A stretch of 64,000 bases of DNA from Escherichia coli (lineage in GTDB: Bacteria > Pseudomonadota > Gammaproteobacteria > Enterobacterales > Enterobacteriaceae), in NCBI RefSeq assembly GCF_013315695.1, contig NZ_CP054353.1, one strand, 5' to 3'. Shown here in pieces: positions 1 to 6,106 of the stretch. Within the stretch, counting starts at the first letter, position 1, and every line of letters starts with the position of its first letter. The notes under the pieces were generated by a model that was given only the letters and a program-made list of their open reading frames with translations, was not told where the DNA came from and ran no database searches. A program made the position numbers and the translations under genes.

Positions 1-2
1 CG

Positions 3-281
3 TTATTTTGTCATCTGCACGTATTTTTCTGCGCTCCTGATTGTTTTCAGGAAAAGAGCGAAGAGATTTACTGTGCGTCTTGAGTTCTTTTCATCCTGGT
101 TGATGGGAATTGAACCTCTGTCAGCCTGTCTTTTCACTGTGTTAACAGCTTGGTTAGTACGCTTTGCGTAATCTTTCAGGCTTTCTTCAAGTACTGGTAA
201 CCCATGCTCATCGCGGTAGGGATAGAACGCTGCTAAACGCTCAAAGTCTGCCTGTTCGTGTGTGTTCAGGACTTTTGCCAT
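3..281 (-). CDS. Phage early-region protein in the Cox/Apl position of a P2-type immunity region; 3' end runs off the window edge
   Basis: ORF starts at 281 and runs leftward to the window edge without a stop; transcribed divergently from the C-like repressor gene, as cox is in P2. No direct sequence resemblance to P2 Cox recognised. Confidence 0.4.
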   Translation of the reverse strand: MAKVLNTHEQADFERLAAFYPYRDEHGLPVLEESLKDYAKRTNQAVNTVKRQADRGSIPINQDEKNSRRTVNLFALFLKTIRSAEKYVQMTK

Positions 282-377
282 GTGTGATAACCTGCGCTAT
301 CTGTGGTTGTTTGTGATCTGGTGTACTTATAAGTACACCTTGTGCGCAAGCTTAGTGTACTTATAGGAACACTGTCA
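282..377. promoter_or_regulatory. Putative P2-type immunity switch region with candidate operator repeats
   Basis: 96-bp divergent intergenic region; perfect palindrome GTGTACTTATAAGTACAC at 321-338 and a second copy of GTGTACTTATA at 355-365, about 34 bp apart start to start. Confidence 0.4.
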
Positions 378-686
378 ATGCTTATCGGTGAAAAAATTAG
401 AGTGATTCGTGAATCAGAGGATTTAACGCGCGAAGAATTTTGCGGCCTGATTGATGTGCCTATCGGCACTTTGCGTCGTTATGAAACGGGGCGGATTGAA
501 AACATAGGGGGCGAAGTGCTTATCAAGATTGTTAATCACCCTCGCTTTTTTAAGTACATGAATTGGCTTATGACGGGAAAAACAAATGAGGCTGCTGGGC
601 AGATCAGTCCGTCTCTCTCCCCTGATGGGCCAAAAAGCACATCGCCTTCTCAAAAACCCCGCAAGACTGGCACACAGCCCGGCTAA
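378..686 (+). CDS. P2 C-like immunity repressor (small HTH protein)
   Basis: About 102 aa from ATG 378. C-terminal half (FFKYMNWLMTGKTNEAAGQISPSL...SPSQKPRKTG) resembles the recalled P2 C repressor tail (FTKYTLWFMTNQIAPESGQIAPAL...SGQKTG); N-terminus has an HTH-like segment. Lies immediately upstream of int on the same strand, as in P2. Confidence 0.75.
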   Translation: MLIGEKIRVIRESEDLTREEFCGLIDVPIGTLRRYETGRIENIGGEVLIKIVNHPRFFKYMNWLMTGKTNEAAGQISPSLSPDGPKSTSPSQKPRKTGTQPG

Positions 687-735
687 TCATGGAGCGCTGG
701 GGGCATGGTGGTCTTGTAACGCTGGGGTTTCACGA

Positions 736-1710
736 ATGAGCATAAAATCAATTCCGGGAGGATATCTTCTTGACATGCGCCCGGAGGGGCGTAAAGGCAA
801 ACGCATTCGTAAAAAATTTAAAACGAAATCGGATGCAGTTTTATATGAGCGGTGGGTGCTGGCGCAACAGCATAACAATGAGTGGAAAGGAAACTCCATT
901 GATCGCCGTCCGCTGTCAGTGCTTATTGACTTGTGGTGGAAATACCACGGTCAGCTAATGAAGTCAGGGCATAACACGCGCCTTAAATTGCTGCGCTTGA
1001 GTGAGGCAATGGATGACCCGTGCGTGCATAAACTTAATACAACGATGCTCACCGAGCTACGTGTGTCCAGGATAGAGCAGGGGATACAGCCCAGCACCAT
1101 AAATCGAGAGATTGGGGCGTTAAGCGCGATGTTTACCGCACTCATCTCATCCGGCCATTTTCTTAACGATAACCCCGTTCAAGGCCTTAAAGGAATGAAG
1201 GTTAACGAGCGCGAAATGGGATATCTGAGTAAGTCTGAATGTGTTCAGTTGCTGGATGCACTGGCTGAAAATCCCGATGAACGGCTGGCTGTCGAAATCC
1301 TTCTGTCGACCGGGGCGCGATGGGGCGAGGTAGCGGCACTGGAGCAGCGCCGTGTTCTTCATTGTCGAATCACTTTTTCAAAAACGAAGAACAGCAAAAA
1401 CCGTACCGTTCCTATTTCTGAAAGCCTGTTTGAAAAGATCAAAAAACGGGGCGGGAAACTGGTGTTTCCGACGCTGGATTATCCATTGGTTCGCGATGTC
1501 ATCAAAACGGTCGCACCTGATGTTCCTGACGGCCAGGCTGTTCATGCGCTGCGCCACACCTTCGCCAGTCATTTCATGATGAACGGCGGCAATATTCTGA
1601 CGCTCCAGAAAATTCTGGGGCACGCAAAGATTCAGACAACGATGATTTATGCCCATCTTGCGCCGGATTACTTGCAGGATGCGGTGAGATTTAATCCTAT
1701 TGCTGGGTAA
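736..1710 (+). CDS. int: P2-family tyrosine integrase
   Basis: 324 aa from ATG 736 (MSIKSIPGGYLLDMRPEGRKGKRIRKKF...). Shares extended motifs with the recalled P2 Int (NDPC, GIxPSxINR, LSTGARWGEA, HALRH-FA-HFM-NGG-I-TLQ-ILGH, YAH-APEYLQDA). The 586 start in the ORF track overlaps the repressor gene and is rejected. Confidence 0.9.
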   Translation: MSIKSIPGGYLLDMRPEGRKGKRIRKKFKTKSDAVLYERWVLAQQHNNEWKGNSIDRRPLSVLIDLWWKYHGQLMKSGHNTRLKLLRLSEAMDDPCVHKLNTTMLTELRVSRIEQGIQPSTINREIGALSAMFTALISSGHFLNDNPVQGLKGMKVNEREMGYLSKSECVQLLDALAENPDERLAVEILLSTGARWGEVAALEQRRVLHCRITFSKTKNSKNRTVPISESLFEKIKKRGGKLVFPTLDYPLVRDVIKTVAPDVPDGQAVHALRHTFASHFMMNGGNILTLQKILGHAKIQTTMIYAHLAPDYLQDAVRFNPIAG

Positions 1711-1720
1711 GGAGGATGTT

Positions 1721-2116
1721 GTGGAAAAAACAGTTAATAGCGATTTGCATTTAGGTCAGTACTGGAGAATAGACATTGTCTGCGATCCAGAACTTCGAGA
1801 TGAGGTTGAGCAATATTTTTCTCGACACGATGTTGGTTTTAGCAAAATTGAAGTTTTTTCCGTCGAAAATCCATATAAACTTGCTCTGTTCTTTGATTTC
1901 GCGAAGAAGGGTGTGGAGGTTGCAAAAGCCATTATGGGACTCTTAGACCGAAATGATATTGAAATAACGATGTATCGTGCTACGGACAGTAGCCCGCAGT
2001 CTGTAAAAAGCATCAAATTGCGTAAGTCTGAAGACGTAGAGAAATGTAAAGATTTGCTTAGTACGTGTGTCGCAATTGGCGTTCAACGAAATAAGGAAAA
2101 AGAGGGGAGCGAATGA
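1721..2116 (+). CDS. Hypothetical prophage cargo protein, about 131 aa, acidic, no recognisable domain
   Basis: ORF in the track starts at TTG 1700; GTG 1721 is preceded by GGAGG (1711-1715) and is the likelier start. Lies between int stop and the host junction. Hand-counted GC of sampled lines is roughly 33-43 percent, against more than 50 percent in adjacent int. Confidence 0.5.
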   Translation: MEKTVNSDLHLGQYWRIDIVCDPELRDEVEQYFSRHDVGFSKIEVFSVENPYKLALFFDFAKKGVEVAKAIMGLLDRNDIEITMYRATDSSPQSVKSIKLRKSEDVEKCKDLLSTCVAIGVQRNKEKEGSE

Positions 2117-2222
2117 TCCACAAAGTGACCACATCCCTGTTATTTGTTGTGGTTGGCTGTGTTTTTGTGTGTCTGTAAGTCTTTGATAATTATCTAACTT
2201 ATTGATTTTTGTTTGTGTTTAT

Positions 2223-2249
2223 GGCCGCTCTGCGGCCTTTTTTCTTTTC
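2223..2249 (+). terminator. Rho-independent terminator
   Basis: GGCCGC-TCTG-CGGCC hairpin followed by TTTTTTCTTTTC. Confidence 0.6.
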
Positions 2250-2305
2250 ACTGTCGAAGAGTCACCGTAAAATCAACGCCATGACACTTCAGCAGAACGG
2301 ATACC

Positions 2306-3286
2306 ATGCTGACACTTGCCCGCCAACAACAGCGACAAAATATTCGCTGGTTATTATGCCTGTCAGTTTTGATGCTGCTGGCGCTTCTCTTAAGCCTTTG
2401 CGCCGGTGAACAATGGATCTCGCCAGGTGACTGGTTTACTCCTCGTGGCGAACTGTTCGTCTGGCAAATTCGCCTGCCACGTACGCTGGCTGTATTGCTG
2501 GTTGGTGCGGCGCTGGCTATATCCGGCGCTGTAATGCAGGCGTTGTTCGAAAATCCTCTGGCAGAACCTGGACTACTTGGCGTCTCTAACGGCGCAGGCG
2601 TGGGGCTTATCGCCGCGGTATTGCTTGGGCAAGGGCAACTCCCCAACTGGGCGCTGGGGCTGTGTGCGATTGCTGGCGCGCTTATCATCACTTTAATACT
2701 CTTACGTTTCGCCCGTCGTCATCTTTCGACCAGTCGGTTATTGCTGGCTGGCGTTGCATTAGGGATTATCTGTAGCGCACTAATGACGTGGGCTATCTAC
2801 TTTTCCACCTCTGTTGATTTACGTCAGCTGATGTACTGGATGATGGGCGGTTTTGGCGGCGTAGACTGGCGGCAAAGCTGGCTGATGCTGGCATTGATCC
2901 CCGTGTTGTTGTGGATCTGTTGTCAGTCCAGGCCAATGAATATGTTAGCACTTGGCGAGATCTCGGCGCGGCAACTGGGTTTACCCCTGTGGTTCTGGCG
3001 CAATGTGTTGGTGGCAGCGACCGGCTGGATGGTTGGCGTCAGTGTGGCGCTGGCGGGTGCTATCGGCTTTATTGGTCTGGTGATCCCACATATTCTCCGG
3101 CTGTGTGGTTTAACCGATCATCGCGTATTACTTCCCGGCTGCGCGTTGGCAGGGGCGAGCGCATTGCTGCTGGCCGATATTGTAGCGCGCCTGGCATTAG
3201 CTGCCGCAGAGCTGCCTATTGGCGTGGTCACCGCAACGTTGGGTGCGCCGGTGTTTATCTGGTTATTGTTAAAAGCAGGACGTTAG
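2306..3286 (+). CDS. btuC: Vitamin B12 ABC transporter permease
   Basis: 326 aa, [15 protein letters not shown]..., multiple TM segments; K-12 gene order btuC-btuE-btuD. Confidence 0.95.
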
Positions 3287-3348
3287 CCGCAAAAAGACGG
3301 TCTATGATTAAAAGCTAAGATTTTTACTGACCACACCCAGGAGAAACG

Positions 3349-3900
3349 ATGCAAGATTCCATTCTGACGACCGTAGTGAAAGATATCGACGGTGAAGTGA
3401 CCACGCTGGAGAAGTTCGCCGGTAATGTGCTGTTGATTGTCAATGTCGCCTCAAAGTGTGGCTTAACGCCGCAATATGAGCAGTTGGAGAATATTCAGAA
3501 AGCCTGGGCCGATCGTGGTTTTGTGGTGCTGGGATTCCCGTGCAACCAGTTTCTGGAACAAGAACCGGGCAGCGATGAAGAGATTAAAACTTACTGTACC
3601 ACCACATGGGGGGTGACGTTCCCGATGTTCAGTAAGATTGAAGTTAATGGCGAAGGACGCCATCCGCTGTATCAAAAATTGATTGCCGCAGCGCCGACCG
3701 CAGTCGCGCCGGAAGAGAGCGGATTCTATGCCCGTATGGTCAGCAAAGGTCGTGCACCGCTGTACCCTGATGATATTTTATGGAATTTTGAGAAATTTTT
3801 AGTTGGCAGGGACGGATTGGTCATCCAGCGTTTTTCCCCGGATATGACGCCGGAAGATCCCATTGTGATGGAAAGCATTAAACTGGCGTTGGCAAAATAA
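3349..3900 (+). CDS. btuE: Glutathione peroxidase-family protein
   Basis: 183 aa with GPx motifs (VASKCG, WNFEKFL). Confidence 0.95.
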
Positions 3901-4649
3901 TGTCTATTGTGATGCAGTTACAGGATGTTGCGGAATCTACCCGCCTGGGGCCGCTTTCTGGCGAGGTTCGGGCTGGGGAGATCCTGCACCTGGTGGGGCC
4001 GAACGGCGCGGGTAAGAGTACCTTGCTTGCACGAATGGCCGGAATGACCAGCGGTAAGGGAAGCATTCAGTTCGCGGGGCAACCACTGGAAGCATGGTCC
4101 GCAACAAAACTCGCGCTGCATCGCGCCTATCTTTCACAACAGCAGACGCCGCCGTTTGCAATGCCGGTCTGGCACTACCTGACACTGCATCAGCACGATA
4201 AAACGCGTACCGAACTACTGAATGATGTCGCAGGGGCGCTGGCTCTTGATGACAAACTCGGACGTAGCACCAATCAACTTTCCGGCGGCGAATGGCAACG
4301 CGTACGTCTTGCTGCGGTGGTGCTGCAAATCACACCACAAGCCAATCCCGCAGGCCAATTACTACTTCTTGATGAGCCTATGAACAGTCTTGATGTTGCG
4401 CAACAAAGTGCATTAGACAAAATTCTGAGCGCGCTGTGTCAGCAAGGACTGGCGATTGTGATGAGCAGTCACGATCTCAACCATACATTGCGTCATGCGC
4501 ATCGGGCGTGGTTGCTAAAAGGTGGAAAAATGCTGGCCAGTGGACGCAGGGAAGAGGTGCTCACGCCGCCAAATCTGGCGCAGGCCTATGGGATGAATTT
4601 TCGCCGTCTGGATATCGAAGGTCACAGAATGCTGATTTCGACCATCTGA
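3900..4649 (+). CDS. btuD: Vitamin B12 ABC transporter ATP-binding protein
   Basis: 249 aa, Walker [10 protein letters not shown], signature LSGGE; start overlaps btuE stop by 1 nt. Confidence 0.95.
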
Positions 4650-4726
4650 TTTCATTAGTATCTTGAAAATCGGGTAATTACGACGCTAAATTAATGCAAG
4701 AATAAAAAACAGAGGAACCGTACGGA

Positions 4727-5191
4727 ATGCGTTTCTGCCTTATTTTGATCACAGCACTGTTTCTGGCCGGGTGTAGCCACCATAAAGCACCGCCGCCAAA
4801 TGCCAGACTTTCTGATTCGATTACCGTTATTGCCGGTTTGAACGACCAGCTACAGAGCTGGCATGGCACGCCGTATCGTTATGGTGGCATGACGCGGCGC
4901 GGTGTGGACTGTTCGGGGTTTGTGGTTGTGACGATGCGCGATCGTTTCGATTTGCAGCTGCCCCGAGAAACCAAAGAACAAGCCTCTATCGGCACGCAAA
5001 TTGATAAAGACGAGTTGCTGCCTGGTGACCTGGTCTTTTTCAAAACGGGCTCCGGACAAAATGGTTTGCATGTAGGTATTTACGATACCAACAACCAATT
5101 TATCCACGCCTCTACCAGCAAGGGAGTGATGCGTTCCTCACTCGATAATGTTTATTGGCAGAAAAATTTCTGGCAGGCGAGACGAATCTAG
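4727..5191 (+). CDS. nlpC: NlpC/P60-family lipoprotein
   Basis: 154 aa, lipobox LAGC, Cys-containing NlpC/P60 core (GVDCSGF). Confidence 0.9.
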   Translation: MRFCLILITALFLAGCSHHKAPPPNARLSDSITVIAGLNDQLQSWHGTPYRYGGMTRRGVDCSGFVVVTMRDRFDLQLPRETKEQASIGTQIDKDELLPGDLVFFKTGSGQNGLHVGIYDTNNQFIHASTSKGVMRSSLDNVYWQKNFWQARRI

Positions 5192-5203
5192 TATGTCGAA
5201 AAA

Positions 5204-5233
5204 TTGACGGCGATGATACATCGCCGTCAATTT
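5204..5233 (+). terminator. Rho-independent terminator after nlpC
   Basis: TTGACGGCGATG-ATAC-ATCGCCGTCAA hairpin followed by TTT. Confidence 0.6.
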
Positions 5234-5437
5234 ACTCCAGAATACAGTAGTATTTTGCAGACAAAAATTCCGTAAATGGATTATTCGTTTATAATCAGGA
5301 TAATCTAAAAAAAGGACCCCTGAAAAAGTGGTTAACATGGAACAAATGAAAGTTACTCCTTCTGTAATTGTTATGTCTTATGGCCTCATCCCTTTTAGCC
5401 GGATACTGAAAAACATCCTTCGAGAGGGACGGTTACC

Positions 5438-6106
5438 ATGAAGATTTTTTTGGAGAATCTTTATCATTCTGATTGCTATTTCCTGCCGATAAGAGATAAC
5501 CAGCAAGACCTTGTCGGCGTTGAGTTAATTACCCATTTCTCCAGTGAAGATGGTACGGTTCGTATACCGACGAGTCGGGTTATAGCGCAACTTACCGAGG
5601 AGCAACATTGGCAATTATTTTCTGAGCAGTTGGAATTGCTAAAATCATGCCAACACTTTTTTATTCAACATAAACTCTTTGCCTGGCTTAATTTAACCCC
5701 ACAAGTGGCTACTTTATTATTAGACAGGGATAATTACGCGGGCGAACTATTAAAATATCCGTTTATTGAACTGTTGATTAATGAGAATTACCCGCATCTC
5801 GATGAAGGAAAAGATAATCGCGATCTTTTGTCCTTATCGCAAATGTATCCCCTTGTGTTAGGTAATTTGGGCGCAGGCAATAGCACAATGAGAGCGGTTT
5901 TTGATGGTCTTTTCACCCGCGTCATGCTGGATAAAAGTTTTATTCAGCAACAAATCACGCATCGCTCCTTCGAACCGTTTATTCGTGCGATCCAGGCGCA
6001 AATTTCCCCATGTTGCAATTGCATCATCGCGGGGGGCATTGATACGCCAGAAATAATGGCACAGATTACCCCCTTTGATTTCCATGCTCTCCAGGGATGC
6101 CTGTAG
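5438..6106 (+). CDS. ydiV: Anti-FlhDC factor YdiV (EAL-like), ending at an in-frame TAG that appears premature
   Basis: 222 aa MKIFLENLYHSDCYFLPIRD...; stop TAG at 6104-6106 is followed by 14 in-frame sense codons (PAVPVNQITTLVQR) and TAA. K-12 YdiV is recalled as 237 aa. Confidence 0.85.
   Translation: MKIFLENLYHSDCYFLPIRDNQQDLVGVELITHFSSEDGTVRIPTSRVIAQLTEEQHWQLFSEQLELLKSCQHFFIQHKLFAWLNLTPQVATLLLDRDNYAGELLKYPFIELLINENYPHLDEGKDNRDLLSLSQMYPLVLGNLGAGNSTMRAVFDGLFTRVMLDKSFIQQQITHRSFEPFIRAIQAQISPCCNCIIAGGIDTPEIMAQITPFDFHALQGCL

Follow-up and report, generated by a model that had tools for sequence, protein, structure and literature searches.

Probable junction of a P2-like prophage with the ihfA terminator upstream of btuC in Escherichia coli

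The interval from 2117 to 2305 of the window, which here means the whole stretch of 64,000 nucleotides of Escherichia coli DNA that was analysed, very probably holds the junction at which the integrase end of a P2-like prophage (Peduoviridae), inserted in the terminator of ihfA, meets the host chromosome. In the convention used for lambda and P2 the junction is of the attL type, and it is read from the P' arm through the core into the host. The event proposed to have produced it is a site-specific recombination catalysed by a tyrosine recombinase, which would put the phage into the rho-independent terminator of ihfA, within the spacer between the ihfA stop codon and btuC that measures 100 bp in K-12. 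Because attP would bring with it a 25-bp copy of the terminator, ihfA would still end in a complete terminator after the event, and another would stand between the phage C-int-cargo genes and btuC. A boundary at 2223-2229 means that btuC and everything to the right of it are host DNA, and the main value of the finding lies in annotation.

Results

Breakpoint and duplicated core

The sequence-only reading of this DNA had predicted that the boundary between phage and host lies inside 2117-2305, and an alignment with the ihfA-btuC region of K-12 bears this out and places the breakpoint at 2223, at the terminator itself. Identity with K-12 is perfect from 2223 up to btuC (ATG at 2306), and similarity upstream of 2223 is nil, so that within the interval only 2223-2305 matches and 2117-2222 is unmatched; the interval is thus not K-12 sequence throughout, with the breakpoint elsewhere. 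When 5,426 complete E. coli genomes were searched, the match started exactly at 2223 in the great majority.

A duplicated attachment core, which the same reading had suggested looking for, is also present. It consists of 25 bp at 2223-2247 (GGCCGCTCTGCGGCCTTTTTTCTTT), comprising the hairpin and most of the T tract of the ihfA terminator; it is identical to the K-12 attB, is repeated at the ihfA end of the prophage in relatives of the window, and flanks the prophage as an exact direct repeat at both ends in strain N31 and in O26:H11 strain 11368. The two copies in N31 (locus L019, 7349-7373 and 43624-43648) are both perfect. The second, ihfA-side junction was read in these relatives and others rather than in the window's own genome. 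The nearest complete genome to the window is that of N31, with 3 mismatches in 3,100 nt (99.9%), none in the collection being identical, and O26:H11 11368 is 100% identical to window 1900-2500. An extension of the core by an imperfect repeat, in which TAATCTGATCTAACTAA of K-12 would be paired with TAATTATCTAACTTA at window 2188-2200, was considered and rejected: the similarity is short, unrelated sequence lies between it and the core, and it reaches into the region of the phage IHF sites.

The terminator hairpin

The core coincides with a predicted rho-independent terminator on the plus strand (2223-2248), made up of the hairpin GGCCGC-TCT-GCGGCC (2223-2237), with a stem of six G-C pairs and a 3-nt loop, and of a T tract, TTTTTTCTTTT (2238-2248). 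A strong terminator had been predicted just upstream of btuC at 2223-2249, and it was found where it had been placed, both by a consensus scan and by folding; the predicted folding energy is -11.6 kcal/mol (z = -3.95), and none of 200 shuffled sequences folds as well. In the scan this is the sole terminator-like site on the plus strand between the phage repressor and integrase genes and btuC, and it stands after the phage C-int-cargo genes as a duplicate of the ihfA terminator. An identical hairpin is located in K-12, 17 nt past the ihfA stop codon and at the same distance from btuC as in the window, and a homologous hairpin has been taken as the terminator of the ihfA mRNA in a Salmonella study (PMC6315103). 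The further suggestion that the terminator might be phage-derived or reconstituted at att holds in part: the hairpin is indeed the att core, but it is also the native ihfA terminator, and is neither new nor purely phage-borne.

The two copies in a lysogen differ in their surroundings. In K-12, and likewise at the ihfA side, a stem of 11 bp (-16.1 kcal/mol) is predicted; the btuC-side copy is without the upstream A5 tract, and its predicted stem has 6 bp (-11.6 kcal/mol). The loop of the host terminator is polymorphic in E. coli, being mostly TCT but TTT in the lineage with btuC allele WP_001520628.1, and the stem is invariant (loci compared: L013 177-191, L008 1767-1781 and window 2223-2237). 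Apart from the lysogens, few genomes have an interrupted site, and one of them is that of strain 98228 (L008 1790-2500): here an IS200C element has entered the T tract of the same hairpin, with TTTTTTCTT on one side and TTTTCACTG on the other, and a second kind of mobile element thus targets the hairpin.

The 3' end of ihfA and the STnc540 family

The uninterrupted ihfA-btuC region is a full match to the Rfam family STnc540 (RF02082), with 67-68 bits (67.4 in K-12) compared to a gathering score of 38 (L002 1154-1312, minus strand), and the att core corresponds to the terminator hairpin at about positions 110-140 of the STnc540 model. In Salmonella, STnc540 is a ProQ-dependent sRNA which is cut from the 3' UTR of ihfA and which represses mgtB when overexpressed (Westermann et al. 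2019, PMC6315103). E. coli is without about 44 nt of the Salmonella sRNA body, and a literature search on ihfA and ProQ in E. coli was without result. Window 2182-2305 comprises no more of the family than the hairpin followed by the leader of btuC, and at 22.5 bits it stays below the STnc540 threshold. The prophage splits the STnc540 model at the hairpin; the body of the sRNA stays beside ihfA in lysogens, together with an entire hairpin.

The region of strand exchange

Differences between the two core copies of individual lysogens suggest that the exchange maps to the 7 bp GGCCGCT (2223-2229), in the ascending stem of the hairpin, and these 7 bp are the probable strand-exchange (overlap) region. 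In strains MEI003 and HCP5S3_I2 the btuC-side core has the loop TTT and a normal T tract, while the ihfA-side core has the loop TCT and TTTTTTATTT, a C-to-A change in the T tract. The empty sites of strains that have the same btuC allele carry the loop TTT, so TTT is the host allele of the MEI003/HCP5S3_I2 lineage. In O104:H4 the loop is TTA at the ihfA side and TCT at the btuC side. The TTA loop was found at none of 5,118 empty sites and at none of 303 btuC-side junctions; its 17 carriers all belong to one clone, and it could be a host variant or one that arose after integration. The heterologous cores of these three lysogen lineages (MEI003 and HCP5S3_I2 have their btuC allele in common and could trace back to one integration) are consistent with an exchange that lies left of the loop's second base, and since attP and attB differ to the left of 2223, the region that is left is GGCCGCT. 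If the exchange takes place within 2223-2229, the window terminator from 2230 onwards is host DNA.

The P' arm, the integrase and candidate intasome sites

The P' (int-proximal) arm of the attachment site occupies 2114-2222. It is missing from K-12 and is conserved among prophages with differing cargo, and in a comparison of prophages whose cargo genes are unrelated the conservation sets in abruptly at GATCCACA (window 2114). The integrase gene (736-1710, plus strand) encodes a tyrosine integrase of the P2 Int type (Pfam Int_N, PF24624, 1.5e-28; Phage_integrase, PF00589, 7.9e-20), which in N31 and O26 is WP_000023776.1. Its identity with P2 Int is 46% and extends along the full length (324 aa, E = 2e-111), residues 1-55 are well conserved, and the catalytic motifs ARWGE, HALRH, GH and MIYAH align with the corresponding residues of P2 Int (Arg, His-x-x-Arg, His and Tyr).

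Paired arm-type Int sites can be recognized on both sides of the core by sequence match to the annotated sites of P2. The putative pair in the P' arm (2118-2133, minus strand) reads TGTGGTC-ACTT-TGTGGAT in reverse complement, matches the P2 motif in an 11-bp register, and is separated from the core by 89 bp, compared to 87 bp in P2; in the other arm TGTGGAC-ACAT-GGTGGAA is found about 40 bp from the core, compared to 35 bp in P2. The motif CCACA-N6-CCACA is by itself not statistically rare in the window.

Two perfect matches to the IHF consensus are located between the Int sites of the P' arm and the core, both on the plus strand: a distal one at 2176-2188 (YAANNNNTTGATW), which is retained as TAAGTTATTGATA in the divergent arm of Z885, and a core-proximal one at 2195-2207, which is invariant in five prophage arms. 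The 64 kb contain 7 matches to this consensus where about 3 are expected, and two of the 7 fall within 32 bp in the P' arm. A third match adjoins the core in the other arm, where the sequences of five prophages vary at no other positions than the degenerate NNNN of the consensus (TCGA, CCAA, CTGA, CAGA and CTAA), and the confinement of substitutions to these four positions points to selection on IHF binding. By protein comparison the best phage integrase is that of a P2-like genome from Klebsiella (L016, CP052639.1), which is 56% identical. This relative shares TGATCCACAAAGTGTCCACA and TAACTTATTGA with the window, the latter in the Klebsiella phage attP at the place equivalent to the core-proximal IHF site, and also conserves the arm-site pair (L016 4289-4306), but its core is different.

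The structure that would most likely assemble on these sequences is an intasome of the P2 type, with Int bound to the paired arm sites at 2118-2133 and to the matching pair in the other arm, and with IHF bending the arms at 2176-2188, at 2195-2207 and at the site beside the core in the other arm.

Prophage genes, cargo and mosaicism

The phage part of the window, 1-2222, forms the integrase end of a P2-like element of about 36 kb. The ihfA-btuC interval contains a prophage of 36,275 bp in N31 and of 35,640 bp in O26 11368, with a gene set that comprises portal, terminase, capsid, lysis, baseplate and tail genes, D, ogr, a replication endonuclease, a cox-like gene, C and int. At the window's left end, on the minus strand (3-281), is a gene for a small Cox/Apl-like DNA-binding protein of 92 aa, a probable excisionase and switch protein (phrog_11533, 1e-54; phrog_575, 'Cox-like excisionase and repressor', 1e-7), which is divergent from the repressor gene and has the position of P2 cox. 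The gene for the C-type immunity repressor, a helix-turn-helix protein (378-686, plus strand; Pfam HTH_3 and HTH_31 at 1e-5; N31 L019 41779-42087), is the first of the rightward C-int-cargo string, and C is followed by int as in P2.

The last gene of the string is a cargo ORF between int and the P' arm (1721-2116, plus strand), whose 131-aa product matches phrog_14142, of unknown function, at 1e-69, and has no Pfam or PADLOC match. The slot in which it is located (window 1711-2116) is variable, and is filled in other prophages by unrelated one- or two-gene cassettes even though int and the arm are nearly identical (loci compared: L004 1691-2490, L005 1463-2501, L006 1825-2500 and L016 3473-4288). 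The cassettes found elsewhere contain phrog_4293 plus phrog_9415 or a DUF1640 protein, and each cassette stops exactly at the boundary of the arm (GATCCACA). Other ORFs of the slot were considered as defence systems and rejected, the matches being only weak, coiled-coil-like fragments of ZorA/LmuB with E = 2e-5 to 1e-2. The immunity region (the cox-like gene and C, window 1-700) is completely different from that of O26 11368 (L001 18102-18801), whereas window 701-2222 differs from the same prophage by 10 mismatches, int, cargo and att being nearly identical; this combination points to a mosaic exchange of immunity modules.

Several further features of these prophages were observed. The space between the tail genes and ogr is taken up in O26 11368 (L003 11125-14522) by an hxsABCD cluster (His-Xaa-Ser radical SAM) together with a fragment of the VgrG/Pvc8 family, and in N31 by a single hypothetical gene; this is another variable cargo locus. 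A Hok/Gef toxin gene is located just inside the ihfA-side arm (L003 15226-15366; L019 7635-7775); 1,548 E. coli genomes show some match to the hok region and 295 match at least 80% of the query, leaving over 1,200 further genomes that share the hok region without the att arm. Genes for ParM and for a partitioning or stability protein are found beside the replication endonuclease gene (L001 11907-13182; L019 33892-35170; L016), and the Klebsiella element CP052639.1 has been deposited as a 32-kb 'plasmid'; the ParM-bearing P2-like lineage might also persist extrachromosomally.

Occurrence in E. coli

The ihfA-btuC spacer is uninterrupted in 5,118 of the 5,426 complete E. coli genomes. The P' arm (2114-2222) is present in 300 genomes, always as one copy and always in the chromosome; arm, core and btuC leader are contiguous in 303 genomes, and the ihfA-side junction is found in 293-295. 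The carriers include O104:H4 outbreak strains, O111:H8, O26:H11, O55:H7 and some O157:H7 and O145 strains. With about 5.5% of complete E. coli genomes carrying a prophage between ihfA and btuC, a precise definition of the att site is useful for prophage typing.

The region upstream of btuC

The first host gene to the right of the junction is btuC, which encodes the permease of the vitamin B12 ABC transporter (2306-3286, plus strand; a 326-aa ORF, annotated as such by RefSeq in all matching genomes) and is followed by btuE, btuD and nlpC. The 83 bp before its start codon are exactly those of K-12, including the terminator and a candidate sigma-70 promoter (2245-2273, plus strand), which is predicted from TTTTCA, a 17-nt spacer and TAAAAT (9 of 12 consensus positions matched), and which is unchanged host DNA. 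The CACCGTAAAATC block of the promoter region is conserved in the enterobacterial alignment of Rfam. An Rfam scan of window 1-6000 returned nothing above threshold, and hence no riboswitch or known leader element before btuC, and a literature search for the btuCED promoter or for read-through from himA yielded nothing usable. Ahead of the predicted transcription start of btuC the first 57 bp or so are unaltered, and only DNA beyond them has changed.

The sequence-only reading had raised the possibility that transcription of btuCED is affected by the lysogen. The identity of these 83 bp with K-12, and the core variants, which indicate that the core copy is derived from the host from the loop onwards, speak against it, and the sequence gives no reason to expect that the control of btuCED would be altered. 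Integration appears to be non-disruptive, in that both the end of the ihfA transcript and the promoter region of btuC survive, and there is consequently no sequence basis for a B12-transport phenotype in lysogens.

Discussion

Two alternatives concern the attachment site itself. With the element and the core unchanged, the exchange could take place elsewhere in the 25 bp, for example across the loop or in GCGGCCTTTTTT, and the differences between core copies would then be due to host alleles, gene conversion or later mutation. The perfect inverted repeat of the hairpin would indeed lend itself to a pair of core-type Int sites with the loop at its centre, the TTA allele of O104:H4 is confined to one clone, and the shared btuC allele of MEI003 and HCP5S3_I2 means that these two lysogens may not be independent. 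Such an exchange, however, predicts that the host loop allele is found at the ihfA side, where MEI003 and HCP5S3_I2 have TCT although the empty sites of their lineage have TTT, and it must account for a TTA loop that neither the empty sites nor the btuC-side junctions contain; we consider it unlikely, and prefer an exchange within GGCCGCT. It is less likely still that the junction is a fossil, left by a prophage that is defective or fixed and whose att site no longer functions. The excised attP junction was not found in IMG/VR (two patterns) or, with a degenerate loop, in metagenome contigs, which is weak evidence from exact-match searches, and a search of deposited phage genomes for near-identity to the int-att region returned only a short 82% match to a Klebsiella record and no isolated GenBank phage with this integrase module. 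Against this, the prophages of N31 and O26 have an apparently complete P2 gene set with int, the cox-like gene and C intact, both of their cores are perfect, and prophages with differing cargo and immunity regions are found in many unrelated serotypes, which implies repeated recent integrations.

The remaining alternatives assign the junction a role in the expression of the neighbouring genes. Lysogenic conversion of btuCED might result from read-through, starting at the constitutive repressor promoter and passing a weakened terminator, or from IHF-bent DNA upstream of the btuC promoter. This would be consistent with the shorter and weaker stem predicted for the btuC-side hairpin once the A5 tract is lost, with the orientation of the C-int-cargo genes, which face btuC with no other terminator in between, and with the location of the two IHF consensus sites some 75-105 bp ahead of the predicted start of btuC. 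The G-C stem, the loop, the T tract, the candidate -35 and -10 elements and the leader are nevertheless all identical to those of K-12, and the transcription that enters the hairpin from the phage genes in the window is matched in K-12 by that of the pheST-ihfA operon, which reads into the same hairpin, so that the arrangement is equivalent; conversion of this kind seems quite improbable. The choice of target could also be functional at the ihfA side, where the phage supplies the loop, the descending stem and the U tract, with natural variants in the form of the TTA loop and of U6-A in place of U6-C. Lysogeny would then alter the end of the ihfA mRNA and of its 3'-UTR sRNA, change ProQ binding or stability and in this way tune IHF, and the duplicate would give the C-int-cargo transcript a 3' end of the ProQ type. 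We regard this as highly improbable; if it were true, the level of a host factor that the phage probably needs for its own recombination would be the quantity that is tuned.

The position of the junction has a consequence for the interpretation of gene content in phage genomes. A 2026 survey of P2-like viruses (PMC13100340) counts a BtuC permease as one of the putative auxiliary metabolic genes of phages. As P2-like prophages commonly abut btuC at the ihfA-btuC att site, this call could be an artefact of prophage boundaries.

Compared to P2 itself (NC_001895), the window prophage has the same order of genes around the attachment site: cox / C, then int, attP and ogr. P2 is annotated with the arm sites TGTGGTC-AATG-TGTGGAC (P arm) and TGTGGAC-ACTG-TGTGGAC (P' arm), whose motif and 11-bp register recur in those described here, and in both P2 and the window type of prophage an IHF site is located between the core and the P-arm Int sites. 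The two systems differ in other respects. The core of P2 measures 27 bp (AAAAAATAAGCCCGTGTAAGGGAGATT), is unrelated to the 25-bp core and is not read as a terminator; the P' arm sites of P2 are located inside the 3' end of int, whereas in the window a cargo gene lies between int and the arm; and in the P' arm the place of the annotated Cox-binding region of P2 is taken by two IHF consensus matches.

Some temperate phages use as their att core a dyad-symmetric region at the 3' end of a gene, such as that of a tRNA or tmRNA or a terminator, and restore the end that they interrupt; Campbell's reviews of insertion sites are said to be a source of such examples. The present element is like these phages in that its core covers a hairpin and in that the phage copy would rebuild the 3' end of the upstream host transcript and so preserve the host function. 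It differs in its target, which is the terminator of a protein-coding gene together with a 3'-UTR sRNA rather than a tRNA.

The closest precedent is a prophage of strain SE11, PP_SE11-4, which is listed as P2-like, with 35.8 kb, a location 'between btuC and ihfA' and a 25-nt duplication (Oshima et al. 2008, Table 2, PMC2608844). It shares the site and the core length with the window prophage, a likeness that is drawn from the table entry and not from the sequence. The prophage site is therefore already catalogued, and the junction is an ordinary one. That table entry is all that the SE11 paper gives: the 25 nt are not named as the ihfA terminator, and the arms and the site of exchange are left undescribed. 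What is added here is the identification of the core with the ihfA terminator, the P2-type architecture of the arms and, probably, the restriction of the exchange region to 7 bp; the coincidence of the core with the 3' hairpin of STnc540 and the variable cargo slot between int and the P' arm are new but minor.
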